Sequence record: SRR2962707_536
Reading direction: 5' to 3' (one strand)
Length of the DNA stretch: 36,092 nucleotides
The translations under genes were made by a program, and so were the position numbers. This document shows positions 17,882 to 36,092 of the stretch, piece by piece; positions within the stretch are counted from its first letter, which is position 1, and each line of letters starts with the position of its first letter. A model generated the notes under the pieces. That model worked only from the letters and a program-made list of their open reading frames with translations, searched no databases and was not told the DNA's origin.

Positions 17882-19438
17882 TTAAGAGAAATAGATTTTG
17901 TATTCTTCGCGGATTTTGCGGTCCAACTCTGGTTCTATCTGGCTCCCGGCTTCGGCCAATAGCTGGTTTTTTCGGCGGATCGCCTCGTCCAAAAGGATCG
18001 GACGTTCAGATTCAATCCATTCCTTCGGGCTCATTCTGTTGCTAAGTTTGGGATAGATATATTCGGTTTGCATAAGACCAAGCGTTTGGTCGGTGCCAAG
18101 GTAATGGCCCGGTCCGCCGAGGCAGACTTCCTTCATCGTTTCAAGGGAAATGGACTCTTCGGTGACGTCGATTCCGCGTACACATCGCATGGTTTGCCCC
18201 AGAATATCGTCCCCCAGAACAAGGCTTTCCATACAGAAACCCAAAAGCGAAGCATGCATGCCCACCGCTTCGTAAACCATGTTTAAGCCTGACAGACCCG
18301 CCATTACGTTGTTGATGCCCTGTTCCCATCCCGCCTGCATGTCAGGCAGTTTGGAATCCGTGATCCCTGCGGCGGCCCCGCCGGGCAGGCCGTAAAACTT
18401 GTGCATCTGTGAACAGCCAGCTGTCAAAAGCCCTTGTTCGGCTGAACCGCCAGACATTGCGCCGGTGCGCAGATCGCTAACGAAGGGCCAAGTGCCAAAC
18501 ACGGCCGGGTGCCCCGGCTTGATGGCGTTGACATAGACAACCCCGGCCAGACATTCCGCCACGGCCTGAACAATGGCCATCGCAATGGGGGCAGGGGCCG
18601 TAGCACCAGCCTGTCCGGCAGACAGCAATGTGATCGGCATACCTGCGTGGATCAAACGCTCCATCACCTGGCAACTTTCTTTGGCGAATTTCATCGGAGG
18701 AACGACGAAACAATTGCTGTTCGAAATAAAGGGCCGTGCACGCCAAGCTGTTTCGCCACCTGCGATCATGTGGATCAAGTCCATGCCCGGCGCAACGTGA
18801 GCGGGTTCTCCGAACGACGTGCCCACATGTTTTTTCGTGCCGGCACAACAGGCGTAGATGGTGTTGAGGTCCATTTCTTTGTTGTCCAAGACGTCGCGAC
18901 AGACCATAGCGCGTTGGAAAAAATGGACGTTATCCAAATTCTGCACCAGTCGCGCTGCGTCATACAGATCTTGCGCCGTCGAGTCGCGAAAGGTTTTTGT
19001 GATCGGATCCACAATGTGAACCGCCGCGCCTGCAGTGCCGTAATGCACATTGTTGCCAGACAGATGCAGGTCGTATTGCGGATCGCGCGCAAACAGCGTG
19101 ATGTCGCGCGCCGCCAGGGCCAGCATGTCTTCGACCAAGGATCGTGGGAATCTGATCCGCCCATCCTCGCCCAGAATGGCGCCAGCCCCGGTCAGGATCT
19201 CTACCCCAGTGGGTGGGGCATCGGACAAGCCGATTTCCTCTAAGGCGACCAAGGCGGCTTCGTGAATGCGAAGAACGTCTCTTTCCGACAAAGGTTTGTA
19301 CTGCCCACCAGCCATTCCCGGACGCACGGGTTGAACGCTCTTGGCCAATGGTGCGGCGCGCAAAGCGACGCGTGCCTTTCGCCCACCGGATCGTCTGTTG
19401 GGTTTCGGCGTCGGATCACTGGCCTCGGAGAATGTCAT
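17882..19438 (-). CDS. Trimethylamine methyltransferase (MttB) family protein, non-pyrrolysine
   Basis: RRSGGR N-terminus, RIHEAAL..LEEIG, GQAGATAP, SDLRTG, DSKLPDMQAGWE, GPGHYLG; no in-frame TAG. Confidence 0.92.
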   Translation of the reverse strand: MTFSEASDPTPKPNRRSGGRKARVALRAAPLAKSVQPVRPGMAGGQYKPLSERDVLRIHEAALVALEEIGLSDAPPTGVEILTGAGAILGEDGRIRFPRSLVEDMLALAARDITLFARDPQYDLHLSGNNVHYGTAGAAVHIVDPITKTFRDSTAQDLYDAARLVQNLDNVHFFQRAMVCRDVLDNKEMDLNTIYACCAGTKKHVGTSFGEPAHVAPGMDLIHMIAGGETAWRARPFISNSNCFVVPPMKFAKESCQVMERLIHAGMPITLLSAGQAGATAPAPIAMAIVQAVAECLAGVVYVNAIKPGHPAVFGTWPFVSDLRTGAMSGGSAEQGLLTAGCSQMHKFYGLPGGAAAGITDSKLPDMQAGWEQGINNVMAGLSGLNMVYEAVGMHASLLGFCMESLVLGDDILGQTMRCVRGIDVTEESISLETMKEVCLGGPGHYLGTDQTLGLMQTEYIYPKLSNRMSPKEWIESERPILLDEAIRRKNQLLAEAGSQIEPELDRKIREEYKIYFS

Positions 19439-22893: not shown

Positions 22894-24384
22894 TTAAGGG
22901 GCACAGTCTTGCTTAACCGCATAGAGCTGACCCTCTCCAATGACCAATGCCGATGTCGGTTCAGGCAACACCCCTATGACACCGGTGACCCGCTCCTCGG
23001 ACCCGAGTTTTGTGAAGCGTTCCATATCCTTCGAAACATGAATCTCACCTGATCGTTTGTGAATGACAAGGTAGGTTTGCCAAGGTTCGACATAGTCGAT
23101 GCTGACTTCATGTGGCCACGGAACTTCCACCGGAAAGTTACCGACTCTATGGAGCGAAAGGTTGTCATTCAGGACAAATAATCCAATCTCAGACTGGATG
23201 ATAGTCAGCCCCCCTAAGAATTTAACGGTGGGATGGTTACCAATCTCCTCATAGGACAACACCTGTATTTGAGTCAGCGATACGCCATCGAGAACCACGA
23301 TGCCCTCGTCTGAGTGCACGAACACTGGAGTTTCGCGGGAAATGGTTATTGGGCGAGGGTGATAAAGGATTTTTTCGCCAGCCACGTGACTTTGTGAGGT
23401 TAGGCCTAGAATGAGTTGCGCCTCTGTTTCATCTGGGCCAAGCAATAAGAAGTGTGGCGGCAGCGTTTCAGGTGTTTCCTTCCAAAAACCAAAGCCCGTC
23501 GTTGTTGATTGAGACCACGGTCCAATCCTGCCGATCCAATTCTGACTTGCCGTATGATATTCCCAAGTCCCTGCGGGAAGAGTTGTAACAAAATCCAATT
23601 CGTCTTCGGAGAAGCGAAAAATCAGCGGCTCAAAGACGCTGTTGGAGGGAAATAACCGGACAAAACCGTTACCGACCTCAATTTGCGCATCCTGAAAGCT
23701 GGGAAGCAGGCGATCCTCTCCAGTCGCGTCTATTAAGATTCTGGTCCACTCCCCAGCAAACGGTCGGAACCACAGGGAGCTGCTTTCTCGCACTATTGAA
23801 CTGTGTGGTCCCGTCAAGGCCAAAGCACCGTTGATTTCAGCGATGGTTCGGACCGAAACTGTCTGGTCACCATTGAACACCGGCAGATCAACATTCTCAC
23901 TGGTACCACTGGCTTTGATCCTGTTCAGCGGGTTTGATGAAGCTGCCTGCCAGTAAACATCGCCGGCACCTTGGTCAAAAAACGCACGATCATAGCCTCG
24001 AGTGGCTTCAATCGGTTCCCAACTCGTAGCATTAGAGCCAAAGCGAAAAATCACTCGCGGGCGAGCCCCAAACCCAAAGGCCTCTCCATCTGGCCCGACA
24101 TGGATACCGTGCTCGAACGCAAATCCCCATACATGCGGAAAATCATCCTCCACTAAGGACAGGCTTGAACCATTGAACTCGTATAGTTCTTGGCGATTAG
24201 CTGCCTTTACGATCATCCCATCAAAACCCGGAACGGTGCGTGGCGACGTTGCAATCCGGTATGGCTGTTCAAATTCCACAGGTAGCTTTGCCTCGCTTCC
24301 CGCTACGGGTACGACACAGAACTCCTCTGCATTGGCCATGGTCGCCCCCATAGAAATCATCAATATGGAAAGCTGTTTATACAC
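22894..24384 (-). CDS. Secreted hypothetical protein, probably all-beta (propeller-like)
   Basis: 496-aa ORF; signal peptide ending ANA; beta-rich with recurring Trp/aromatic motifs; more AT-rich codons than its neighbours. Confidence 0.75.
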   Translation of the reverse strand: MYKQLSILMISMGATMANAEEFCVVPVAGSEAKLPVEFEQPYRIATSPRTVPGFDGMIVKAANRQELYEFNGSSLSLVEDDFPHVWGFAFEHGIHVGPDGEAFGFGARPRVIFRFGSNATSWEPIEATRGYDRAFFDQGAGDVYWQAASSNPLNRIKASGTSENVDLPVFNGDQTVSVRTIAEINGALALTGPHSSIVRESSSLWFRPFAGEWTRILIDATGEDRLLPSFQDAQIEVGNGFVRLFPSNSVFEPLIFRFSEDELDFVTTLPAGTWEYHTASQNWIGRIGPWSQSTTTGFGFWKETPETLPPHFLLLGPDETEAQLILGLTSQSHVAGEKILYHPRPITISRETPVFVHSDEGIVVLDGVSLTQIQVLSYEEIGNHPTVKFLGGLTIIQSEIGLFVLNDNLSLHRVGNFPVEVPWPHEVSIDYVEPWQTYLVIHKRSGEIHVSKDMERFTKLGSEERVTGVIGVLPEPTSALVIGEGQLYAVKQDCAP

Positions 24385-25612: not shown

Positions 25613-27070
25613 TTAGTAAAGATCAAAATACTCGGCTTGTTCCCATGCGGAAACGGTCAGGTGGTACCTGTTCCATTCAGCCCGGCGAATACGGCTCAGG
25701 TAGTCGACAAAGTCGTCGCCCAGAGCGTCGCGATAAAAGGCGGAAGTTTCAAATTCCTGAATGGCGGCCAAAAGGCTTTCGGGAAGTGACATCGCCGGAC
25801 CGTCATAGGGGCTTTCGACCGCGTCGGGGGCGACCAATCCTTGAGTCACACCATCGAGACCTGACAGGATTTGACTGGCAAAGAAATAATAGGGATTGGC
25901 CGTGGTTTCGGCCACTCTGTTTTCAATCCGAGAGGCTGGATCGCCGGGGGCCATCAATGCCCGCACCATGGCTCCGCGATTGTCACGCCCCCATTGGATA
26001 CGATCCGGAGCCAGTTGATGGGGGCGATAGCGCTTGTATCCGTTCACGGTAGGCGTGGTCAGTAGACAGGATTCCCGGGCATGTGAAAGAATGCCAGCAA
26101 TCCAAGACTGCGCGATTGGTGTGAGTGCATTTTCAACCTCAGGGATCATCAGGTTTTCACCGGTCGAGGCCCCGACCACAGATTGATGCAAATGCCATCC
26201 GCTGGCCGCGGCATTCTCAAGGTTGGGTTTGCACATAAACGTGGCATGCAAACCCTGTCGGGCGCAGGTTTCTTTTACCATCGTGCGGAACATCATCATG
26301 TTGTCGGCATGGGTGAGCGGATCTGCCGGATCAAAGGTAAATTCGAATTGGCTGGGGCCCATTTCCACTTCCATTGAGCGAATGGGTAATCCGAGCGCCT
26401 GACAATTTCGTCGAAGCGCATCCATCACATGTTCTAACGCACTATAGCGGGTTTCCGTCAGAAACTGGTACCCCGGCGCGAGGTTCCGGGTTTGGGGCGG
26501 TTGCGCGGGCATGGTTGCGTCGGCGTGTTCCAGCTTGTCATCGGTTTTTTCGAAGACGTGAAACTCAACCTCTAAACCGACCACCAAGGCCATGTCGGCC
26601 TTCGCCAATTTGTCTATGGCCGTTTTTAAAACCGTTCGGGCGGCAAATGGGATCGGCGCGCCGGATTTGTAGCAAATATCGCAAATAATCCAGGCAGAGT
26701 GCGGAGACCAGGGGAGGACGCGGAATGTGACTGGGTCAGGAACCATTAAGACATCGCTTGCCCCGGTCATATTTCCCGGAACATCGGCGTCTTCTGACCA
26801 TACCGGAAAGACCGTTGCATGGGATGTGTCTTTCAGCAGTAAAGTGGAGGGCACCGCCAATCCCGTACAAAAGATTGAAAGGAACGCGCTGGCGACAATT
26901 GTTTTACCGCGCAGAACCCCATGTTGATCCGGAAACAAAACGCGGATGGTCTCTAGCTCTCCATCCGAGACTTGCTGAACCAAATCTGCGGCGGCCGAGA
27001 TGACTTCGGGAGGCAACAGACCTTTTCGCGCCAAACTTCCCTGAGAGATCGCATCGTGAAAATTTTGCAT
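25613..27070 (-). CDS. Glutamine synthetase family protein (gamma-glutamyl amide ligase type)
   Basis: FPDQHGVLRGK, GLEVEF, EVEMGPSQFE, SGWHLHQS, NGYKR, NRGAMVR, RIENR; start moved to ATG 27070 to avoid overlapping the Rieske gene. Confidence 0.9.
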   Translation of the reverse strand: MQNFHDAISQGSLARKGLLPPEVISAAADLVQQVSDGELETIRVLFPDQHGVLRGKTIVASAFLSIFCTGLAVPSTLLLKDTSHATVFPVWSEDADVPGNMTGASDVLMVPDPVTFRVLPWSPHSAWIICDICYKSGAPIPFAARTVLKTAIDKLAKADMALVVGLEVEFHVFEKTDDKLEHADATMPAQPPQTRNLAPGYQFLTETRYSALEHVMDALRRNCQALGLPIRSMEVEMGPSQFEFTFDPADPLTHADNMMMFRTMVKETCARQGLHATFMCKPNLENAAASGWHLHQSVVGASTGENLMIPEVENALTPIAQSWIAGILSHARESCLLTTPTVNGYKRYRPHQLAPDRIQWGRDNRGAMVRALMAPGDPASRIENRVAETTANPYYFFASQILSGLDGVTQGLVAPDAVESPYDGPAMSLPESLLAAIQEFETSAFYRDALGDDFVDYLSRIRRAEWNRYHLTVSAWEQAEYFDLY

Positions 27071-27125
27071 GCAACGGGTCCAAACTGGTTTCTGTGCGCT
27101 GGGCGACGGTTCGATTAGAACAAAC

Positions 27126-28445
27126 TCAAACTTTGGCGTCCCAGTCAATGCATGCAGCGCGACGTTCTGCATCGCTGCTGGCCGAAACTTCGCGCCAGCG
27201 GCTTTTGTCACCAATCGTGTCATTCGAGATTGGCCCGCACACTGAACTTGCCTCAACGCCGTTGAGCATAGGAAGCGCATCGCGGTCTCCGGCTTCAAGG
27301 CTGGCAATTGCGGCGCGCATCATGCGACGGTATTTGATAATCGCGACATCAGTTTTGCCAAGGTGCTCTTTGGTTCGATCAAAAATAGGGCCGGGGCTTT
27401 CAACGGCCCATTGGTCATGCACGTTTATGTCCAACCCCATACCGGTATAGGTCTCTTTGGCTTGTTCATCTGGGTTATACCCATAGTCATTGCGCTTGTT
27501 TTTGATCGGCGCATAGTCGGGCAACCGGTGTTCTTTGAGCCGCTGAGCCCGCATAAGCTCTTTGTCGACCGGCTTGGTGAAGCTGGTAAACATCGAGTAC
27601 CAATAGCAATTCTCGTCATCAATGGGCACGTGCCATTGGGTGATAATCATCTCTCGGGACATCGGGATCGAAATGGCTTCGGGGAAAATTTGGTTGGTGA
27701 TCCGAACGTGGGTTTTTCCGTTGTCCAGATCGCGCAGCGCAATGATGCGCATGCCATAGTCCGTTTCCTCGACAGTAATGTCAGGGCGGGGATAGTCACG
27801 GAGCAGTTTGGTCATCGGGATATCTGTGTCAGCGGCCTTGTCGCGGAACTGTTTACCGTAAGAATCCGCCGGGTCTTCGTCTTCGAGAAAGCGGTGCAGG
27901 AATGAGGCGTGGGCCGGGTCGATCCCAACCTCCATGGCTTGAAGCCAGTTGCATTCCCAAAGACCCTTGAAAGCGAAAACATGGGATTCGGGCGCGCGAA
28001 AGCAGTCGAAATTCGGGAATTCAGGTGGCTCCCCCGGACCCATATAAGCGAATATTATGCCGTTTTTTTCGACAACAGGGTAAGACGTCGTCTGAATGCT
28101 TTCATGCATCCGCGACCCTTCCGGTTCTCCGGGCTGTTCGACACATTGCCCGTTGCGGTCAAAATGCCAGCCGTGGAACGGGCAACGCAATCCGTTGTCT
28201 TCCAATCGACCAAAGCAAAGATCAGCACCACGATGGGGGCAACCACGCTCAATCAGACCCAACTCCCCATCGCTATCCCGGAACAGGACCAAGTCCTCGC
28301 CCAAAAGTTTGACCGGAACAACAGGGCGATTGTTGACCAATTCGTCGCTTAGGGCGGCGGGCTGCCAATAATGGCGCATGACCTCTCCGGCTTTTGTTCC
28401 GGGGCCGCTCTGAGTGAGCATCTCATTCATCTCTTGGCTGATCAT
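27126..28445 (-). CDS. Rieske non-heme iron oxygenase alpha subunit (phthalate 4,5-/chlorobenzoate 3,4-dioxygenase-like)
   Basis: CPHRG-x14-CPFHGW Rieske motif; CNWLQAMEVGIDPAHASFLH mononuclear Fe motif; HDQWAVES; EHLGKTD. Confidence 0.92.
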   Translation of the reverse strand: MISQEMNEMLTQSGPGTKAGEVMRHYWQPAALSDELVNNRPVVPVKLLGEDLVLFRDSDGELGLIERGCPHRGADLCFGRLEDNGLRCPFHGWHFDRNGQCVEQPGEPEGSRMHESIQTTSYPVVEKNGIIFAYMGPGEPPEFPNFDCFRAPESHVFAFKGLWECNWLQAMEVGIDPAHASFLHRFLEDEDPADSYGKQFRDKAADTDIPMTKLLRDYPRPDITVEETDYGMRIIALRDLDNGKTHVRITNQIFPEAISIPMSREMIITQWHVPIDDENCYWYSMFTSFTKPVDKELMRAQRLKEHRLPDYAPIKNKRNDYGYNPDEQAKETYTGMGLDINVHDQWAVESPGPIFDRTKEHLGKTDVAIIKYRRMMRAAIASLEAGDRDALPMLNGVEASSVCGPISNDTIGDKSRWREVSASSDAERRAACIDWDAKV

Positions 28446-28509
28446 GTGAATCCCTTTCCTGCGGCCAAGCCGATCCTTATTGGAAACTTGCTTGGTGTTT
28501 TTGCGAACA

Positions 28510-28530
28510 TTTGGTCTAATAGCGCACAAA
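28510..28530. promoter_or_regulatory. PcaR/PobR-type IclR operator
   Basis: TTTGGTCTAATAGCGCACAAA matches 16/21 positions of the PcaR/PcaU-type site TTTGTTCGATAATCGCACAAA (consensus as I recall it); lies between the divergent Rieske and IclR genes. Confidence 0.65.
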
Positions 28531-28627
28531 TGAAATAATGGCGCAATTGAAATTCGATTTGCCTCGCTGAAAACTTGTGGCAGGAGTACGTGCTATCGGA
28601 TCAGGCCAGATGAATGGGGAGGGCAGG

Positions 28628-29428
28628 ATGCCCAAACAAACCACATCGCAAGTCACCAAACTTGCGGATCGGGACATCTCGACGACCTTTGTCAAAGGTT
28701 TGGCGGTCCTAAAGGCTTTTGACGACACCCACACTCGCTTAACACTGGCAGAGATTGCGCAGCGGACCAATCTGGACCGGGCATCGACGCGGCGACTAAC
28801 CCTGACTTTGCTGCACTTGGGCTATGCCCAGAAAGACGGGCGGCATTTTTCCTTGTCGCCGAAAGTACTTGTTCTGGCAGGTAGCTTTCTGCGCGGGAAC
28901 CAGTTTGGTACAGATATTCAGCCCTTGCTCAATCGCGCATCCACCCAAATTGGGGCGACGGTGTCGCTGGCTTTGGCGGATGAGGATGCCGCAGTCTATG
29001 TCGCACAGTCTCATGTCTTGGAAGATGTGGTTTCCTTTGGCTTTACACTCGGCAGCCGGTTACCGCTTTTGCACACAGCAATCGGGCGAATGATTTTGGC
29101 CTATAGCGCCAAAGCATGGGCTGAGGAGAGAATCGAGACTGATGCGTTTGACACTTACAGCGCGACAACGATTACAGATCGACGGGTTTTAAGTGAAAAG
29201 GTCGCCGCAATTCGAACGGCGGGCTATGCCATTGTCGATGGTGAATTTGAACAGGGTGTCACCGGCTTTGCCGTACCTGTTGGTGGGGCGGGCACCTTAA
29301 AAGCGGTTGTCGGCCTGTCAAAGCCGTCAATACTGGTGCGTGATCCTGAGGAACAACTCAAAATCATAAGTCAGTTGCAACAGACGGCTTTTGCTTTGGG
29401 GCAATCGCGGATGTTCTCTGGTGGGTAG
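28628..29428 (+). CDS. IclR family regulator (PcaR/PobR-like)
   Basis: KGLAVLKAFD...LTLAEIAQRTNLDRASTRRL.LTL..LGY; GSRLP...TAIGR; GYAIVDGEFE.G. Confidence 0.92.
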   Translation: MPKQTTSQVTKLADRDISTTFVKGLAVLKAFDDTHTRLTLAEIAQRTNLDRASTRRLTLTLLHLGYAQKDGRHFSLSPKVLVLAGSFLRGNQFGTDIQPLLNRASTQIGATVSLALADEDAAVYVAQSHVLEDVVSFGFTLGSRLPLLHTAIGRMILAYSAKAWAEERIETDAFDTYSATTITDRRVLSEKVAAIRTAGYAIVDGEFEQGVTGFAVPVGGAGTLKAVVGLSKPSILVRDPEEQLKIISQLQQTAFALGQSRMFSGG

Positions 29429-29631
29429 TCGTCTGATGACAGAACACCCGCAAAAAGTTTTCATTTAAGTGGATCGGGTCTGCGTAAAATTTGCGCATCC
29501 GATGAGGTGCCGGGCTTTCTGAACGCCGGGCGATGATATCGCCCCTAGATTTGTCGTGAAGCCTTGGTTCCCCCCAACGAACAAGAAAGAATGCTGCGAC
29601 ACCCGGACTGACTTTGGGTTGGAGCATTGCC

Positions 29632-30336
29632 ATGAAATATCTCAAGATTGCCGCCGTTGGCGTCGCTATGCTGGCCTCACAAGGGCACGCGCATGAGGAG
29701 GGCGTGTCGATTGACGCGCAAATCCGTGCCTATCTGTTGGCGCATCCCGAAGTGATCATGGAATCTTTGGCGGTCTTGGCCGAGCGGGAACAACGCAGTC
29801 AGCTCTCGCAAAAAATCGCCTCTTTTCCAGCGCTATTTCAGGAAGATCCCGTTTTGGGCCTAGGGCGACCAGATGCGCCTGTCCGCGTCATTGAGTTTTT
29901 TGACTATAAATGTGTGCCTTGCAAAGCCATGCATCCGAAATTGACCGAACTCGTGGACAAAAAGCCGGATTTACGGATCGAGATGCGCCAACTCCCCATC
30001 CTGACGCCAGCGTCCGAACGCGCAGCTCGCTTTGCATTGGCGGTCAAAGACGTGGCGGGGGATGAAGCCTATAGACAGGTTCATAAGATGCTTTGGGCGC
30101 ACAAAGGCCCCTATAACACGGTCGTGTTTGGCCAGTTTGCCGACAAGGCTGCACTCGACTACGCCACTTTGGAGACGGTCATGGAAAGCGATGCCATCTC
30201 TGACCGGATCGAAGAAAACCGCGATATCGCGATCACCTTAGAAATACTGGGAACGCCGGCTTTTATCACACCGGACACTGTATCTTTTGGCCAAAGTGAC
30301 ATAGGTGCTTTGGCCAAAGAATGGCTTAGTCAATAA
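29632..30336 (+). CDS. DsbA family (Com1/ScsC-like) periplasmic thiol-disulfide oxidoreductase
   Basis: Signal peptide; YLLAHPEVI; EFFDYKCVPCK; GTPAF cis-Pro loop; GGAG RBS. Confidence 0.9.
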   Translation: MKYLKIAAVGVAMLASQGHAHEEGVSIDAQIRAYLLAHPEVIMESLAVLAEREQRSQLSQKIASFPALFQEDPVLGLGRPDAPVRVIEFFDYKCVPCKAMHPKLTELVDKKPDLRIEMRQLPILTPASERAARFALAVKDVAGDEAYRQVHKMLWAHKGPYNTVVFGQFADKAALDYATLETVMESDAISDRIEENRDIAITLEILGTPAFITPDTVSFGQSDIGALAKEWLSQ

Positions 30337-31126
30337 AGGCTTTTTCGACCACAAAATGCTGAGGTTTCGAGTTCGCGCCTTCGTCCAGACCGGCGTCGGC
30401 GCACAGGCTCATAATGTCTTTATTCAGTGCCAAATTTCCGCAAACCATCACGCGATCTTCTTCGGGTGTCCAGGCTGGAAATCCAAGCGCGTCAAAGACA
30501 CGTCCGTCGCGAATGTGATCACTGATACGCCCTTCGATCTTTGAATCTTCCCGGGTGGTTGTCGGATAGTAATGCAGTTTGTCGCCGACCAATTCACCAA
30601 TCAAAGGATCGTCAGGCAAAGCCGAGACGATCTCGGCACCATAGGCGAGCTCTTTTTGAGTCCGACAAGTATGTGCCAGGATCACCTCGTCATAAGCTTC
30701 CCAAGTTTCCGGATCGCGCAACAGCGAAGCGAACGGGGCGACACCGGTCCCGGTGCAAATCATCCAAAGCCGTTTGCCGGGCAACAAGGCATCCAGCACA
30801 AGTGTGCCCACAGGTTTTGGCCGCAGAATAATCTCGTCTCCGGGCTCAATTTTTTGCAGCTTCGATGTCAGTGGCCCATCGGGAACCTTGATTGAATAGA
30901 ATTCCAGCTCTTCGTCCCAACTTGGGGACGCAATGGAATAGGCCCGCAGCAATGGCTTGCCATCGTCCTTAAGAAGGCCAATCATCACAAACTCACCAGA
31001 CCGGAAGCGCAAAGATTGAGGGCGGGCGACCCGAAAAGAGAAAAGCGTATCACTCCAATGTGTTACAGACATAACGGTCTGGGCATCAGGCAGTATTTTA
31101 GCGCTGGGTGTGGCTTGCACGTTCAT
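30326..31126 (-). CDS. fpr: Ferredoxin--NADP(+) reductase (bacterial subclass I)
   Basis: FRSGEFVMIGL, RAYSIASP, GPLTS, TGTGVAPF, MVCG, VVEKAF. Confidence 0.95.
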   Translation of the reverse strand: MNVQATPSAKILPDAQTVMSVTHWSDTLFSFRVARPQSLRFRSGEFVMIGLLKDDGKPLLRAYSIASPSWDEELEFYSIKVPDGPLTSKLQKIEPGDEIILRPKPVGTLVLDALLPGKRLWMICTGTGVAPFASLLRDPETWEAYDEVILAHTCRTQKELAYGAEIVSALPDDPLIGELVGDKLHYYPTTTREDSKIEGRISDHIRDGRVFDALGFPAWTPEEDRVMVCGNLALNKDIMSLCADAGLDEGANSKPQHFVVEKAFID

Positions 31127-31139
31127 CGCAAGTTCCTTT

Positions 31140-31481
31140 CTAAGCGGCTTCGGCCGCAGGCTTTTCGGAAAAATGAGTTGTCAGCTTATTGTCTGTGCCA
31201 TCCAGATCATCTGCTGTTTCCAATGGTTCCTTGGCCTCAACAATGACCGGCCAAAGCTCAGAATATTTGCGATTGAAGTCGACCCATTTTTCCATGTCGT
31301 CTTCTGTGTCGGCGCGGATGGCGTCTGCAGGGCACTCAGGCTCGCAAACCCCGCAATCGATACATTCGTCTGGATGGATCACCAGCATGTTTTCACCTTC
31401 ATAAAAGCAATCCACCGGGCAGACGGAAACGCAATCGGTGTATTTGCAAGCGATACAATTGTCGGTGACTACAAAGGTCAT
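31140..31481 (-). CDS. fdxA: Dicluster ferredoxin FdxA
   Basis: [60 protein letters not shown] favours ATG 31481. Confidence 0.95.
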
Positions 31482-31603
31482 GGGCATCCCTTTCTGGATG
31501 GTTTTTATCGTTTTGCCGCGCCGCAGCAGACCTGTCCGTCAATAAATTGCTATTTTGCGATTCTGCGTCGCGGCATTCTTTGGGAGTAATAAAGGAGCCT
31601 CCC

Positions 31604-31894
31604 ATGATCGATAGTTTGACCGCCACTCCAGACGCCCGTTGCCTTCAAGTGCATTGGGAAACAGGAGAACAGTCTGATCTGTCCGCAGAAACACTGCGCC
31701 GCGAAGCCAGAGACGCGTGGTCCATTCGCGAACGCATCGATTCTGGTGAGGTCCGGGTTCTTCCCGGCATTACGATCACCGGATTGTTTCAAGTCGGACA
31801 TGGTGGCGTAAACGTCCATTTTTCAGACGGCCACGACCACGCAATCTTTCCTTTTGAGTATTTGCGGGAACTTTCCGACCGCTTTGACAAGTAA
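31604..31894 (+). CDS. DUF971 / GBBH-like N-terminal domain protein
   Basis: LQVHW, LR, VG..GVNVHFSDGHDHAIFPFEYLREL; AAGGAG RBS. Confidence 0.8.
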   Translation: MIDSLTATPDARCLQVHWETGEQSDLSAETLRREARDAWSIRERIDSGEVRVLPGITITGLFQVGHGGVNVHFSDGHDHAIFPFEYLRELSDRFDK

Positions 31895-31957
31895 TTGACA
31901 GTTGCCCGCTGCGCTGCAGCGCAGGCTCAAACAGTAGCCAGACCTTAGGAGTCGAGC

Positions 31958-33700
31958 ATGGACGAAATTTTGGATGGAATGACGCAGATTGACTGTGACA
32001 TCCTGATCATCGGTGGCGGAACAGCGGGGCCGATGGCGGCGCTGAAGGCCAAAAAGAAAAACCCCAAAGCAAATGTTGTTTTGTTGGACAAAGCCAACGT
32101 GAAACGCTCAGGCGCGATTTCCATGGGGATGGACGGGCTCAATAACTCGGTCATTCCGGGCTATGCGACGCCAGAGCAATACACCAAAGAAATCACCATC
32201 GCGAATGACGGCATTTGTGATCAGGCAGCGGTCTATCGCTATGCCGAAGAATGCTATGGTATCATTCAGGAATTGGACAGCTTCGGTATCCGTTTCCAGA
32301 AAGACCAAAACGGCGAATATGACGTTAAGAAGGTCCACCATATCGGGACTTACGTTCTGCCGATGCCAAATGGGGATACGGTCAAGAAGGCGCTTTATCG
32401 CCAACTGCGCAAAGCGCGGATCAACATTATCAACCGGTATATGGCCACGCGGCTTTTGACTGGTGAAGGCCGGGCGGCGGGCGCAATTTGCGTCAACACC
32501 AGAACATCTGAGTTTTTGGTTATCCGTGCCAAGGCCGTGATCATGGGGCTTGGTGCTGCGGGACGTCTGGGTCTGCCGACATCTGGCTATCTATACGGCA
32601 CTTATGAAAACGCGACGAACAGCGGCGAAGGTTATTCGATGGCGTATCACGCCGGTGCTGGCCTGGCGAACCTGGAATGCTACCAGATTAACCCATTGAT
32701 TAAGGACTATAACGGTCCGGCTTGTGCCTATGTGGCAGGGCCTTTGGGCGGCTTTACGGCGAATTCCGAAGGCGAACGCTTTATCGAATGTGACTACTGG
32801 TCCGGCCAGATGATGCAAGAATTCTATGATGAATTGCAGTCAGGCAAGGGGCCTGTGTTCCTTAAGCTGAACCACCTAGCTGAGGAAACTGTGGCTGAGA
32901 TTGAGCGTGTTCTGCACATCGTCGAACGTCCAACACGCGGCCATTTCCACGCCAATCGTGGGACAGACTATCGAAAAGACATGATCGAAATGCATATTTC
33001 GGAAATCGGTTTCTGCTCTGGTCACTCAGCGAGTGGTGTCTTTGTCGACGAACACGCCCGGACCACCATTCCCGGTCTCTATGCTGCAGGTGATATGGCC
33101 AACGTGCCGCACAACTACATGCTGGGTGCCTTTACCAACGGGGCTTTTGCTGGATTGGACGCTGTTGATTTCATCAATGATGTGGACTTTGCCAGCTTTG
33201 ATCAGGGCGAAGTGGATGCAGAACGCACCCGCGTTTTGGCGCCGACCAAACGGGATGATGGCATTCCGCCAAACCAGATCGAATATAAAACACGCCGTCT
33301 GGTGAACGATTATCTTCAGCCACCAAAAGTGACGGCTAAGATGGAACTCGCTCAAAAGCGTCTTGCAGAAGTGCGCGACGACATGGAGCAGGGCATGTAT
33401 GTGCGCGACTCACATGAGCTGATGCGGGCGCTCGAAGCCTCTTCGATCTTGGATTGCGCCGACATGGCGGCGGCAGCGTCGCTCTACCGGACCGAAAGCC
33501 GTTGGGGTCTCTACCACAACCGGGTCGAGTATGCCCGTGACGACGATAACTGGTTCTGCCACACCATTCTAACCAAAGGCGAAGACGGCAAGCCTGCGCA
33601 TCGTAAGCAAGAGGTGAAACCTTACGTCGTCGAAATCGGTGACGACGAAAAAGACGCCTACAACAAGCAACGTGTCGATACGACCGTGGCTGCGGAATAA
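31958..33700 (+). CDS. FAD-dependent oxidoreductase of the FRD/SDH/AprA family (AsfA/AprA-like)
   Basis: IIGGGTAG, KRSGAISMGMDGLN, GLYAAGD, RTESRWG; AGGAG RBS; no covalent-FAD His in the RSxx segment. Confidence 0.88.
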   Translation: MDEILDGMTQIDCDILIIGGGTAGPMAALKAKKKNPKANVVLLDKANVKRSGAISMGMDGLNNSVIPGYATPEQYTKEITIANDGICDQAAVYRYAEECYGIIQELDSFGIRFQKDQNGEYDVKKVHHIGTYVLPMPNGDTVKKALYRQLRKARINIINRYMATRLLTGEGRAAGAICVNTRTSEFLVIRAKAVIMGLGAAGRLGLPTSGYLYGTYENATNSGEGYSMAYHAGAGLANLECYQINPLIKDYNGPACAYVAGPLGGFTANSEGERFIECDYWSGQMMQEFYDELQSGKGPVFLKLNHLAEETVAEIERVLHIVERPTRGHFHANRGTDYRKDMIEMHISEIGFCSGHSASGVFVDEHARTTIPGLYAAGDMANVPHNYMLGAFTNGAFAGLDAVDFINDVDFASFDQGEVDAERTRVLAPTKRDDGIPPNQIEYKTRRLVNDYLQPPKVTAKMELAQKRLAEVRDDMEQGMYVRDSHELMRALEASSILDCADMAAAASLYRTESRWGLYHNRVEYARDDDNWFCHTILTKGEDGKPAHRKQEVKPYVVEIGDDEKDAYNKQRVDTTVAAE

Positions 33701-33711
33701 GGACTGCCAAT

Positions 33712-33954
33712 ATGCCTCTTGCACAAACTTCATCTACAGTTCCGGTCGTCGTCGACAAAGATCTGTGTATCGCTGACAAAGGTTGCACGGTCTGCGTGGA
33801 TGTCTGCCCTTTGGATGTGCTGCGCATCGCTGTCGAAGACGACGGGACCAAAACGGCTTTTATGAAATATGACGAGTGTTGGTATTGCATGCCCTGCGAG
33901 GCGGATTGCCCAACAGGTGCCGTGACCGTGAACATTCCCTTTTTGCTGAAGTGA
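33712..33954 (+). CDS. 2x[4Fe-4S] ferredoxin (AsfB/AprB-like)
   Basis: CIADKGCTVCVDVCP and CWYCMPCEADCP. Confidence 0.92.
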   Translation: MPLAQTSSTVPVVVDKDLCIADKGCTVCVDVCPLDVLRIAVEDDGTKTAFMKYDECWYCMPCEADCPTGAVTVNIPFLLK

Positions 33955-33961
33955 GACCTTT

Positions 33962-34915
33962 ATGAGCGGGCTATTTGAAGACTTCGACGATATTTCAGAG
34001 CTGGCCGAAGGTCTGGACGATCCTTCGGCGGGCGGGCGGATCATGGCCGTGATCGAATTGGCGGACACCGCTGATTCGGCTGTCATTCCCTACTTGGCTA
34101 AAGCCATTTCAGACGAGGATGCCGGGGTGCGCAAGCAAGCCGCCTTGGCGTTAACCAACTTTGACGGTCCTGAAACCGCGTTGGCCTTGGTCTCGGTTCT
34201 GAAAGACGAGGATCCGGCGGTGATTGCGGCGGCGGCCCTGAGTTTGACAGAGTTAAAAGACCCTGCGGCAGGGGACTCTATCCTGCCTGAGTTGGACGAT
34301 ATGGATGAGGTTAAGCTGACGGCTTGTTTGGCCGGGATCAAGGAATTGCGCCGTCCCGAAGCGATGGGACCAGCGGTTTTTGCCCTTAAACATGAGTCTT
34401 CAACGGTGCGGGTCCAAGCCGTTGGTGTGATCGGATGGCTTCAGGATGAGGGGTCGTTGCCCGCACTAAGGGACGCCGCGCATGATGCGGATACTCAGGT
34501 TCGGCGCACCGCCTTGGCTGCGCTTGGTTTTTCCAAGTCTGAACATGCTGAAGCCACGTTGGTTGAAGGCCTGTCAGACGGCGAATGGATGGTGCGGGAA
34601 TCCGCAGCAGAAACGCTGGCAAAAACCGGGTCTGCCACGGCCATTCCTGCGTTGCGACAGGCTTTGCTTGACGATTACTGGCAGGTTCGCCTGAAGGCCG
34701 TTCGGTCTTTAGGACGTTTGGGGGCAACAGAAGCCGCGATGGAAATCGGGCCGATGATGGATACGAGCATACCGAATTTGCGCAAAGAATGCGCGGCGGT
34801 GTTGGGTGAATTGGCTGTTCCAGAGACGATTCAATTCCTGGAAAAATATGCAGACGACACAGACCCTGATGTACGTAAAAACGTGCGCTGGGCTTTGGAT
34901 AAATTGGCCGCATAA
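33962..34915 (+). CDS. HEAT repeat (PBS lyase-like) protein
   Basis: About 9 repeats of the L.D.D..VR..A..AL pattern. Confidence 0.9.
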   Translation: MSGLFEDFDDISELAEGLDDPSAGGRIMAVIELADTADSAVIPYLAKAISDEDAGVRKQAALALTNFDGPETALALVSVLKDEDPAVIAAAALSLTELKDPAAGDSILPELDDMDEVKLTACLAGIKELRRPEAMGPAVFALKHESSTVRVQAVGVIGWLQDEGSLPALRDAAHDADTQVRRTALAALGFSKSEHAEATLVEGLSDGEWMVRESAAETLAKTGSATAIPALRQALLDDYWQVRLKAVRSLGRLGATEAAMEIGPMMDTSIPNLRKECAAVLGELAVPETIQFLEKYADDTDPDVRKNVRWALDKLAA

Positions 34916-34950
34916 CTCAACCACAACACTATTTGCACAAAAAGTGCGCA

Positions 34951-34977
34951 GCCCTCTTGAGCTTTGCTTAAGGGGGC
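34951..34977 (+). terminator. Hairpin after the HEAT gene
   Basis: GCCCTCTTGAGC-TTT-GCTTAAGGGGGC, a 12-bp stem with 2 G-U pairs; no U-tract. Confidence 0.4.
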
Positions 34978-35231
34978 CGAAATGCCCTCCGAAATAGAAT
35001 TAAGTCTTTGATAAATAACGATTAAAATGTTTGCGATTCTGACTTGAAATCCATGATTTGGTCGCTTTTCTGCGTGATTGTCGCCCGACCTCAAGAAAAT
35101 CGGCCTAAATCTTAACCAATTTGAGAATAGAGCCAATTTCGCCCTTTGTGATTCTTTGAACATTGCGATTTCGGCCGTCTACTGGGGGCAGAAATTCCTA
35201 GCCACTCCTTCAATCCCAATCGGAGACAGCA

Positions 35232-36092
35232 ATGTTTGCCAAGACAACACTAAGAGCCGCGCTTCTTGCCGCGACACTCATTCCCGCCGCGACGATCGCA
35301 TCGGCAGAGAAAATCAAAATTGCCGTCGGGCACCAATCCATGTGTACCGATACCTATACAGCCGGCATCGTGATCAAGGAACTGGGTTTGCTAGAGCAAT
35401 ACCTTCCAACGGATGGCAAGTATGCTGACGCGGATTATGACGTCAGCTGGGCCGACTACAGTTCTGGTGGCCCGATCACCAACCAGATGTTGGCCAACAA
35501 GCTGAACTTCGGTGTCATGGGGGACTATCCACTGATCGTAAACGGCGCCAAGTTCCAAGAGACTGACAGCCTGCGGACCCTTTATGTGGCTGGAACGGGC
35601 TACAACCTCAAAGGCTCCGGCAACGCGATTGTGGTTCCCGTTGAAAGCGACATCTATTCCATCGACCAGTTGATGGGCAAAGAAGTGTCCACACCTGTTG
35701 GCTCTGCTGCCTGGGGCATGTTGCTGAAGGCGATGCAGGACAACAACATTCCGACGTCAGAATATGTGCTTAAGAACCAAAGCCCTGCCGTTGGCGCGGC
35801 CAACATCGCAGCGGGTAAGATCGACGCGCACTCTGACTTCTGCCCTTGGTCGGAAATCATGGAATTCCGCGGCACAGGTCGTAAAATCTATGACGGTTCC
35901 GAAACGGGCGTTCCGTATCTGCACGGCGTCGTTGTTCGGGAAGATTTCGCAAAAGAATATCCTGAAGTCGTAGAAGCCTTCATTAAGGCTGTTTGGGCCG
36001 CTGGTGAATGGATCCGTGAAGATCCAATGCGGGCCGTTTCGATGATGGAAGGCTGGACCGGTGTCGAGAAAGAGGTTCTGTATCTCTATTTC
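35232..36092 (+). CDS. ABC substrate-binding protein, SsuA/TauA/NrtA-like (AsfC-like); 3' truncated by window edge
   Basis: Not in the ORF track (no stop). GGAG RBS; MFAKTTLRAALLAATLIPAATIASA|EKIKIAVGHQ...SGGPITNQMLANKLNFGVMGDYP...STPVGSAAWG; open to the end. Confidence 0.9.
   Translation, partial: MFAKTTLRAALLAATLIPAATIASAEKIKIAVGHQSMCTDTYTAGIVIKELGLLEQYLPTDGKYADADYDVSWADYSSGGPITNQMLANKLNFGVMGDYPLIVNGAKFQETDSLRTLYVAGTGYNLKGSGNAIVVPVESDIYSIDQLMGKEVSTPVGSAAWGMLLKAMQDNNIPTSEYVLKNQSPAVGAANIAAGKIDAHSDFCPWSEIMEFRGTGRKIYDGSETGVPYLHGVVVREDFAKEYPEVVEAFIKAVWAAGEWIREDPMRAVSMMEGWTGVEKEVLYLYF

Follow-up and report, generated by a model that had tools for sequence, protein, structure and literature searches.

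The window analysed here is the 36,092-nucleotide stretch SRR2962707_536. At its end lies a gene module (positions 30326 to 36092) built around a flavin adenine dinucleotide (FAD) flavoprotein. An earlier note on this DNA had described an AprAB/AsfAB-like locus in which fdxA and fpr are transcribed divergently from genes for a DUF971 protein, the flavoprotein, a small ferredoxin, a HEAT protein and a periplasmic binding protein. Open reading frame (ORF) listing and family scans find all seven genes in this layout. By sequence comparison, the flavoprotein is a sister lineage of the AprA-type reductases of adenosine 5'-phosphosulfate (APS) and 3'-phosphoadenosine 5'-phosphosulfate (PAPS), and not a member of the same clade. 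The genes of the module are the following.

30326..31126, minus strand: fpr, ferredoxin-NADP(H) reductase (Pfam FAD_binding_6 and NAD_binding_1)
31140..31481, minus strand: fdxA, 7Fe-type ferredoxin (NF045490, 161 bits; DUF3470)
31604..31894, plus strand: DUF971 (GBBH-like_N) protein, 96 amino acids (aa) (Pfam PF06155, 52 bits)
31958..33700, plus strand: FAD flavoprotein, 580 aa (NCBIfam NF006131, PRK08275, 1041.9 bits)
33712..33954, plus strand: 2x[4Fe-4S] ferredoxin, 80 aa, 8 Cys (Pfam Fer4_7)
33962..34915, plus strand: HEAT (PBS-lyase type) repeat protein, 317 aa (HEAT_2, 171 bits)
35232..36092 (window end), plus strand: NitT/TauT-class periplasmic binding protein (signal peptide; NMT1, 42 bits)

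The DUF971 ORF is open from 31547, and the ATG at 31604, which is preceded by AAGGAG, is its likely start. The divergent spacer between fdxA and the DUF971 gene is 122 bp long, and the spacer between the HEAT and binding-protein genes 316 bp (34916..35231). The binding-protein gene is cut by the window end, so that the first 287 of about 458 aa lie within the window. For the sulfonate-type ATP-binding cassette (ABC) importer named in the earlier note, this means that the binding protein is present in the window, while permease and ATPase follow it only in relatives. Neither SdhB nor a membrane anchor, both said to be lacking, was found among the window ORFs scanned with Pfam (those of at least 150 aa outside the locus). 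The closest homologues are 78-92% identical and bear names such as Roseovarius, Paracoccaceae and Lentilitoribacter.

Family and Phylogeny of the Flavoprotein

The NF006131 match, which spans positions 6-575 of the 577 in the model, exceeds the cut-off of 587 bits. Next comes NF010374, the model for the flavoprotein fused to HEAT, with 812 bits. The next unrelated model is PRK06854 (NF005331), which covers AprA-like proteins including the PAPS reductase type; here the flavoprotein scores 280 bits, below the cut-off of 557. Cut-offs are likewise missed on aprA (TIGR02061, 129.5 bits in two stretches, cut-off 641.75), on the best succinate dehydrogenase/fumarate reductase (Sdh/Frd) model (158 bits, cut-off 567) and on NadB (TIGR00551, 113.7 bits, cut-off 452.75). 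The Pfam domains are FAD_binding_2 and Succ_DH_flav_C.

Among structures in the PDB, the best match is the alpha subunit of the PAPS reductase of Methanothermococcus thermolithotrophicus, MtPAPSR (8a8o_A, E 6e-60), followed by AprA of A. fulgidus (1e-31). FrdA (6e-20), SdhA (2e-18) and NadB (4e-18) match more weakly. The NF006131 family profile gives the same ranking, with an E value of 7e-77 for MtPAPSR alpha.

A maximum likelihood tree was built from 75 rows (IQ-TREE quick search, LG+G4, support by the SH-like approximate likelihood ratio test, SH-aLRT). The rows are the window protein, nine locus orthologues, 59 full-length representatives at 50% identity and six Sdh/NadB-type proteins from relatives' genomes; NCBIfam labels were assigned to 61 of the 50%-identity representatives. 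In this tree, which contains no row reaching the TIGR02061 cut-off and has one unstable long-branch outgroup row, the window flavoprotein falls inside the NF006131 clade with support of 100. The extended clade of 19 rows is sister to eight PRK06854 rows (support 97). Three SdhA rows, a NadB-like row and the Frd/Sdh-family flavoprotein of genome G009 (locus L085) all lie outside. Model scores, PDB ranking, profile alignment and tree agree on the kinship with AprA over FrdA and NadB that the earlier note had proposed, and the database name of NF006131, fumarate reductase/succinate dehydrogenase flavoprotein subunit, is a misnomer.

Each of the five closest genomes holds exactly one family member (1037-1098 bits, next match at most 126), and none of 14 control genomes exceeds the NF006131 cut-off. 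No paper describing NF006131, PRK08275 or PRK13800 was found in the open-access literature, a scope that leaves most subscription journals outside. The same literature yielded no paper that joins DUF971, HEAT, sulfonate and ferredoxin, and none on a HEAT protein and flavoprotein in sulfur starvation.

Active-Site Residues

Residue positions were taken from the alignment of the family profile to AprA (PDB 2FJA) and from a tabulation of the residues in each row of the tree. The 2FJA numbering agrees with what we take to be the AprA residue numbers, and the roles of AprA Asn74, Arg265 and His398 and of the Sdh arginine are likewise assumed from the AprA and Sdh literature.

The segment RSGA occupies residues 50-53 (32105-32116) and aligns with RSGA of AprA and RSHT of SdhA. 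It follows that the His which binds FAD covalently in SdhA/FrdA is absent, as the earlier note had observed: the position is Gly52 here, Gly in 12/12 family rows and His in 3/3 SdhA rows. The Asn74 position of AprA is kept as Asn62 (12/12 core, 7/7 near and 8/8 Apr-like rows), and the aromatic residue at the Trp234 position is kept as Tyr216. His356 is common to the Apr-like clade (8/8) and not to SdhA; it corresponds to the "GGH" position of MtPAPSR. The C-terminal motif RTESRW is also shared with the Apr-like clade.

The positions around the nucleotide are different. In AprA, Arg265, Glu141, Gln145 and Val273/Gly274 serve in APS binding and catalysis. In the profile-to-2fja alignment, Glu141 is replaced by Ile129, Gln145 by Val133 and Val273/Gly274 by Ala255/Cys256. 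According to the available passages of the MtPAPSR paper, it is the residue at Gln145 that decides between APS and PAPS (PMC10322725). Since the positions that bind adenosine monophosphate are lost together with Arg265, APS would not be the substrate.

Other residues are invariant in the family and found only there: Glu78, the loop HHIGTYVLPMPNG, YLYGTYEN, QINPLIKDYNGPAC, ECDYWSGQMM, His346 and His385-Asn386-Tyr387. HMMER pairs His346 with the SdhA His of "CHYMMGG", a pairing that MAFFT does not reproduce. As far as these alignments tell, the enzyme resembles the Apr-like proteins in its frame and in the surroundings of the flavin, and has a substrate pocket of its own.

Relationship to AprAB-Type Reductases

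MtPAPSR (PDB 8A8O, PMC10322725) and the PRK06854 proteins share with the module a non-covalent-FAD alpha subunit of the fumarate-reductase superfamily and a 2x[4Fe-4S] beta subunit. Both groups, which are sister clades, also have the Asn74-type position and the "GGH" His in common. However, identity is about 30%, the window protein has its nucleotide-binding positions and Arg265 replaced, and the specificity loop of MtPAPSR corresponds in NF006131 to the family-invariant HHIGTYVLPMPNG. The window ferredoxin is tailless, and HEAT, DUF971, importer and Fpr/FdxA accompany the window enzyme.

Dissimilatory AprAB (PDB 2FJA/1JNR) has the RSGA segment, the Asn74 position, the aromatic residue at Trp234 and the C-terminal RTESRW in common with the flavoprotein. 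In contrast, the central part of AprA (294-426) does not align with it, and no homologue of sat, aprM or qmo occurs among the Pfam-scanned ORFs of the window. The gene order in the window is alpha before beta, and the hosts of the module are aerobic heterotrophs.

Conservation and Spread of the Module

A search through one genome per species turned up at least 582 sites that code for a relative, and 80 of them were retained with 10-kb flanks. Module genes were located by tblastn with the proteins of the window and of the closest complete locus, L020; a first ORF clustering, polluted by antisense ORFs, was replaced by this search. Several of the 80 loci are short contigs and many are from Bradyrhizobium, so that the counts below are not independent samples.

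The small ferredoxin is linked in 77 of the 80 loci, HEAT in 75 and DUF971 in 71. For the importer, the figures are 67 (binding protein), 65 (permease) and 70 (ABC ATPase). Regulators of the Crp/FNR type occur in 60 loci and of the GntR/UTRA type in 21, and the "putative sulfate exporter" YeiH is present in 21. Fpr is linked in 48 loci, FdxA in 36, both in 27 and either in 57. The linkage of fpr and fdxA, which the earlier note had proposed to check for conservation, is in this sense conserved, with at least five arrangements: fdxA-fpr divergent upstream as in the window (21 loci), fpr immediately upstream and codirectional (19 loci), fdxA alone downstream (seven loci) and fdxA-fpr behind the importer (four loci) are among them.

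The same core occurs on annotated plasmids of Cupriavidus, Acinetobacter, Acidithiobacillus, Nostoc and Tsukamurella. In Cupriavidus, its neighbours are an NtaA/DmoA monooxygenase, an acyl-CoA dehydrogenase-family gene and an SsuA-family binding protein. In Nostoc, the module is placed between two sulfonate binding proteins and metX. Hosts include alpha-, beta- and gammaproteobacteria, Acidithiobacillia, cyanobacteria and actinobacteria, with 58 plasmid records; Methylobacterium, Bradyrhizobium and Tritonibacter/Seohaeicola are examples of carriers. Within the family of the closest genome, four of 101 sampled species exceed the NF006131 cut-off, plus one broken copy; in 121 sampled species of its class, the centre genome alone holds a family member. 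High conservation together with this patchy, plasmid-borne distribution fits a mobile accessory trait that has spread horizontally.

Two further loci may be mentioned. On plasmid pTcM1 of Acidithiobacillus caldus (L094, 10574-14035), genes for a GntR regulator, flavoprotein, ferredoxin, HEAT protein and fdxA are followed by a 1153-aa "FAD-dependent oxidoreductase" in place of the importer. A partial family member at G363:C23:191484-192629 (559 bits, model positions 191-574) has an in-frame TGA and is, from its sequence, probably a decaying copy.

The Electron Supply

The small ferredoxin resembles the beta subunits of the reductases discussed above, with E values of 1.4e-6 to AprB (3gyx_B) and 2e-5 to PAPSR beta (8a8o_C). 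Its score on the aprB model TIGR02060 is 27.3 bits and does not reach the cut-off of 135.65. It consists of the two-cluster core of AprB without the C-terminal tail that wraps AprA. All eight Cys and Trp57 are invariant in 13/13 sequences. Trp57 is placed between cluster ligands, and for the equivalent Trp the MtPAPSR paper, in its available passages, proposes a role in electron transfer (PMC10322725).

Fpr matches the ferredoxin-NADP(H) reductase 2bgi_A over residues 8-265 (E 1.3e-122) and has the two-domain FAD/NAD(P) fold. It scores 128 bits on the E. coli-type equivalog NF008178 and does not reach its cut-off of 390. FdxA exceeds the NF045490 cut-off (161.3 bits against 135) and matches 7Fe ferredoxin I in the PDB (E 7e-41).

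Both genes might have been the only housekeeping copies, a case that the earlier note had named as damaging to its reading. The five closest genomes all show otherwise. Each has a second fpr elsewhere, 66-70% identical to the window gene product, while the linked copy is 85-88% identical; for fdxA, the second copy is 73-81% and the linked copy 81-87% identical. Because second copies exist elsewhere, the linked genes are, on this sequence evidence, cluster-dedicated paralogues in the relatives, a statement that holds for these five genomes and not for the window's own genome. The chain that the earlier note had drawn, from reduced nicotinamide adenine dinucleotide phosphate (NADPH) over Fpr, FdxA and the small ferredoxin to the flavoprotein, is the natural reading of a module in which Fpr and/or FdxA adjoin the enzyme in 57/80 loci.

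The HEAT and DUF971 Proteins

The HEAT protein scores 81 bits on the fused model NF010374, at the C-terminal positions 608-895. Flavoprotein-HEAT fusions exist in actinobacteria, for instance P0126 (925 aa, 1585 bits on NF010374) and a Tsukamurella protein of 893 aa. This fusion suggests that HEAT is probably a stable partner of the enzyme, and the role of a mere maturation factor, which it had been given before, becomes doubtful.

The DUF971 protein matches PDB 3luu (E 2e-9). In accessible passages of a paper on the iron-sulfur (Fe-S) carrier HCF101, DUF971 is its C-terminal domain, of elusive function, and CxCxxC is a possible metal site (PMC7980591). The motif is present in 7 of 16 aligned orthologues; the window protein and eight others, mostly marine, are without it. 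The annotation of the 19.7-kb stretch from Nostoc lists no DUF971 gene, but has an Mrp/NBP35 gene two positions downstream of the genes for ferredoxin and HEAT. DUF971 may plausibly act as an adaptor or as a helper connected with Fe-S clusters.

The Importer and Its Binding Protein

A model of a 458-aa orthologue of the binding protein (mean predicted local distance difference test score, pLDDT, 88.8) has SsuA as its best fold matches (template-modelling score, TM, 0.87 on target), then TauA. Further fold matches are CmpA/NrtA and the enzymes DszB and Thi5, which have the binding-protein fold. The fold of SsuA and TauA (TM 0.77-0.87 on target) and the type of permease and ATPase are shared. 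On the other hand, the window protein stays below the SsuA cut-off, about 100 aa form an additional domain at the C-terminus, and three pocket types occur.

The extra domain is of the alpha/beta kind and lies beyond the window end (L020:14298-14654 and L044:6024-6380 in relatives). Isolated from a Bradyrhizobium protein, it scores 27.8 bits on NosL, a family of copper chaperones (cut-off 24), and the L020 domain scores 15.5. A NosL match at E <= 0.01 was found in 3 of 18 full-length binding proteins and is weak.

For pocket typing, 61 full-length binding proteins were aligned; 19 loci were dropped, having no match of at least 38% identity or no ORF of at least 380 aa. Three types can be told apart.

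Type A: GHQSMCTDTY ... Trp161 ... HxDFCPWSE
Type B: GHQSTVTNTVP ... Trp ... DF(T/C)PWSE
Type C: GTQDTTTNTVT ... His ... DFVPFAE

The window protein is of type A, with His34, Met37, Cys38 and Cys204; type C is the kind of Bradyrhizobium or Methylobacterium. The invariant residues of the enzyme are alike in loci of all pocket types. Some loci carry extra genes, as follows.

Sco1, with CxxxC and a His
PCuAC
A dihaem cytochrome c, with two CxxCH
A membrane protein of about 215 aa, with invariant SWVVCCATPSW and a further invariant Cys
TlpA-like and DsbA/ScsC-like oxidoreductases; the window holds a ScsC-like gene (29614-30336)

Type A occurs in 21/21 loci with at least one of Sco1, the cytochrome and the membrane protein; elsewhere it occurs in one 7.4-kb contig alone. 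In two loci, identity to the window is 90-91% for the flavoprotein and 53-54% for the binding protein, which there is of type B; these loci lack all of the extra genes. On a flavoprotein tree, seven independent pairs differ in pocket; the copper genes are concordant in six and opposite in none (p 0.031). Binding protein and copper genes form one contiguous block, so that joint transfer can explain the association. A metal site in the type A pocket is a lead at most.

The membrane protein with the CC motif is encoded between the permease and ATPase genes in 22/80 loci (L020:15641-16330, beyond the window end). It has no Pfam or NCBIfam family, and its Atlas clusters are all called "hypothetical protein". 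A Foldseek search with its model (pLDDT 81.6) gave no PDB match at E <= 0.001. The idea of a thiocyanate dehydrogenase as the reason for the copper genes was dropped, having no support among the open-access papers listed.

Comparison with AsfAB

In the available parts of three reviews, asfA is a marker of aromatic desulfonation and AsfAB a reductase/ferredoxin pair (PMC4267179, PMC9694294, PMC2864759). The published primers asfAF1all and AsfBtoA were taken from the supplement of PMC9694294. In the 80 loci, the best match of asfAF1all has two mismatches and is found in two loci of Burkholderiales, where it falls on the homologous "LSGIEC" site; AsfBtoA has no match at up to three mismatches. 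In 151 Burkholderiales genomes, asfAF1all matches with at most one mismatch in three. At one locus, L089, both primers match exactly, in the gene of a 562-aa flavoprotein and in the next gene, which encodes a 109-aa ferredoxin and is followed by an ORF with a signal peptide. AsfA is taken here to mean this primer-matched gene pair, and the sequence of Pseudomonas putida S-313 itself is outside the comparison.

The AsfA of L089 is 25% identical to the window flavoprotein (56.6 bits), scores 84 bits on NF006131 (cut-off 587) and is placed, with a long branch, outside the Apr-like/NF006131 group as a whole. The order of flavoprotein, ferredoxin and binding-protein genes is the same, the superfamily is distantly shared, and both flavoproteins are without the covalent-FAD His. 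However, the ferredoxin of 109 aa has CxxCxxCxxxCP-type motifs, as opposed to the 80-aa ferredoxin of the window, and no HEAT or DUF971 gene is seen in the 3-kb stretch of L089. "AsfAB-like" in the sense of family membership, as the earlier note had it, is therefore given up: judged by these sequences, the likeness to AsfABC is one of layout, not of family.

Spacers and Surrounding Genes

A conserved block stands in the divergent spacer.

31532..31554, no strand: conserved block CTGTCCGTCAAnnAATTGCTATT in the fdxA/DUF971 spacer

The block is nearly invariant in an alignment of the window with nine close loci, in which the rest of the spacer varies, and is a candidate for a shared promoter or operator. 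It is flanked by a 12/13 inverted repeat, TGCCGCGCCGCAG (31514-31526) and CTGCGTCGCGGCA (31563-31575). Of the 10 aligned loci, only 4 show a recognisable downstream arm.

The pattern TTTGYGATTCT, picked after being seen, has three exact copies in the window (31554, 35030 and 35145), all in the two spacers of the module, with 0.06 expected; it was not found in the same spacers of 20 relatives. A box for FNR/CRP, with the consensus taken to be TTGAT-N4-ATCAA, gave 19 matches at up to two mismatches against 17.75 expected, and hence no signal. A promoter scan gave one hit against 4.2 in shuffled sequences, and terminator-like sites numbered 12 against 6.8, none of them tellingly placed.

Next to fpr lies an oxidoreductase gene.

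29614..30336, plus strand: DsbA/ScsC-like periplasmic thiol-disulfide oxidoreductase (Pfam DSBA 71 bits, ScsC_N 33 bits)

The protein has a CVPC motif and a signal-like N-terminus, and the 3' end of its gene overlaps the stop of fpr. It is found upstream of fpr in 8/80 loci, all of them closest relatives, and is an optional neighbour of the module.

The remaining genes of the window are an ordinary marine-alphaproteobacterium set. A protein of the MTTB family (trimethylamine methyltransferase-like) is encoded at 17882-19438 on the minus strand, with AraC and LysR regulators, aldehyde dehydrogenases and a branched-chain-type ABC importer as neighbours. This region resembles a catabolic island for quaternary amines and has no relation to the flavoprotein module. 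At 25613-28529 (minus strand) are genes for a glutamine-synthetase-like protein, with gamma-glutamylputrescine-synthetase-like scores, and a Rieske LigXa-like oxygenase, and beside them an IclR/PcaR-type regulator (28577-29428); none of the three is kept beside the module in relatives. An ORF of 496 aa (22894-24384, minus strand) has no Pfam family at E <= 1e-5.

Proposed Function and Alternatives

The reading preferred here, with a probability of roughly 45%, is that the flavoprotein cleaves an imported small sulfo-compound by AprA-like flavin chemistry, using its own electron chain. Electrons would pass from NADPH to Fpr and FdxA, then through the two clusters of the small ferredoxin to FAD. 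FADH- would attack the sulfur of the imported compound as AprA does with APS, and the products would be sulfite and the desulfonated remainder. The substrate could be a sulfonate, a thiosulfonate or a sulfate ester; since the nucleotide pocket is gone, it would be neither APS nor PAPS. HEAT would serve as a structural subunit, and DUF971 would be a helper for Fe-S or an adaptor. For the relatives, the FAD-N5 mechanism is set out in PMC10322725. The neighbours in Cupriavidus and Nostoc, YeiH in 21/80 loci and the sulfonate/taurine-binder fold of the binding protein suggest a sulfur context.

Several observations weigh against desulfonation. AprA Arg265, which we take to contact the sulfite adduct, is Leu247 here and Leu in 12/12 family rows, while Arg is found in 8/8 Apr-like rows. 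The "GERF" arginine of the Sdh/Frd type is kept as Arg274 (12/12 family rows, 3/3 SdhA rows, 1/8 in the Apr-like clade), and hydride/proton chemistry on a C=C bond would therefore also fit. On the SsuA model TIGR01728, the binding protein scores 102.5 bits (window part) or 117.2 bits (full-length orthologue) and stays below the cut-off of 163.5. A pocket of His, Met, Cys and Cys accompanied by copper-chaperone genes is unexplained by a plain sulfonate substrate. The regulators are of the Crp/FNR (60/80) or GntR (21/80) type and not CysB/LysR, the regulator class of sulfate-starvation genes. Scavenging of sulfur is not obviously needed in sulfate-rich seawater. Finally, searchable sources contain no activity, ligand or expression data for any family member.

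A substrate without sulfur, or an unsaturated one, is an unlikely alternative. The enzyme would then carry out Frd-like hydride/proton chemistry on an imported anion, for instance an acid with an activated C=C bond, or its substrate would be a compound of the nitrogen oxyanion type. The retained Arg274, the loss of the AprA Arg265 position and the HMMER pairing of His346 with the SdhA His would agree with this. Binding proteins of the NitT/TauT class also take nitrate, bicarbonate and others, and one record names an orthologue as a nitrate ABC binding protein. However, tree and scores group the enzyme with the Apr-like proteins and not with Frd/Sdh, and the His346 pairing depends on the aligner. 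The binding protein is nearest in fold to sulfonate and taurine binders, and the contexts in Cupriavidus and Nostoc are related to sulfur.

Distinctly unlikely is a copper- or thiol-linked function of the window's variant, in which the binding protein would be copper-loaded or Cys-dependent and the compound handled by the module would be copper-bound or thiol-reactive, not a free sulfonate. The coincidence of the type A pocket with copper genes (21/21 loci, six of seven tree pairs) speaks for it, as do the CxxxC and His of Sco1, the two CxxCH of the cytochrome and the NosL-like score of the Bradyrhizobium domain. DszB, a Cys-dependent desulfinase of the same fold, is among the structural matches of the binding protein. 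On the other side, linkage of importer and copper genes can by itself yield the association, and most loci (types B and C) are without copper genes yet have the same active-site residues in the enzyme. The NosL signal is weak, and a metal site is no more than a lead.

A fuller scheme for the type A loci is offered as a long shot. In this scheme, the type A binding protein would be no mere passive receptor but a periplasmic copper- or Cys-dependent protein with a pocket of His34, Met37, Cys38, His200 and Cys204. Its maturation or service would fall to Sco1, PCuAC, TlpA/ScsC-type oxidoreductases, the dihaem cytochrome c and the CC-motif protein, which had not been described before. Copper/thiol redox in the periplasm would be coupled to import, which would be followed in the cytoplasm by ferredoxin-driven, APS-reductase-like cleavage.

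In arylsulfonate use by Pseudomonas putida S-313, AsfAB is said to have been proposed as a feeder of electrons. It is very unlikely that the module is a helper of this type, in which flavoprotein and ferredoxin merely feed electrons to a separate desulfonating oxygenase. The common layout of flavoprotein, small ferredoxin and binding protein would suit such a helper, and so would the NtaA/DmoA-family monooxygenase near the Cupriavidus module; asfRABC is described as a reductase/ferredoxin electron system in the available part of PMC4267179. However, the primer-matched pair of L089 belongs to another family, outside the Apr-like/NF006131 group, and its ferredoxin has a different Cys motif. No oxygenase is among the most widely shared groups in a rough ORF clustering of the 80 loci, a clustering that included no search aimed at oxygenases. 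A catalytic-looking core that is 58-93% identical across several phyla would also be unusual for a mere electron carrier.

A true assimilatory APS/PAPS reductase of the AprAB type, like MtPAPSR, is highly improbable. MtPAPSR is the closest solved structure and its group the sister clade, but Arg265, Glu141, Gln145 and Val273/Gly274 have become Leu, Ile, Val and Ala/Cys, the scores fall short (280 against 557 bits on PRK06854, 130 against 642 on aprA), and a dedicated importer would be senseless for an intracellular nucleotide. An ordinary Frd/Sdh or L-aspartate oxidase flavoprotein, to which the Pfam domains and the NCBI product name point, is scarcely credible for a protein that is without the covalent-FAD His, SdhB and anchor, scores at most 158 bits on the Sdh, Frd and NadB models, and lies outside those clades in the tree. 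The genomes of relatives hold separate SdhA genes.

Significance

To our knowledge, flavin-N5 attack on a sulfo group, the chemistry of APS reductase, is known for activated sulfate only. A sister family that lacks the nucleotide pocket and has its own importer and low-potential electron supply implies a second substrate for this chemistry in aerobic bacteria. The family is neither the fumarate reductase of its database name nor the soil marker AsfA, so that surveys by either label miss or mislabel it. The copper-chaperone variant provides a concrete experimental handle. If true, copper/thiol-coupled import followed by the cleavage step would give marine bacteria a route, as yet undescribed, for an organosulfur (or copper-thiolate) compound. 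Once the substrate is identified, the organosulfur cycle of soil and sea would gain a step.

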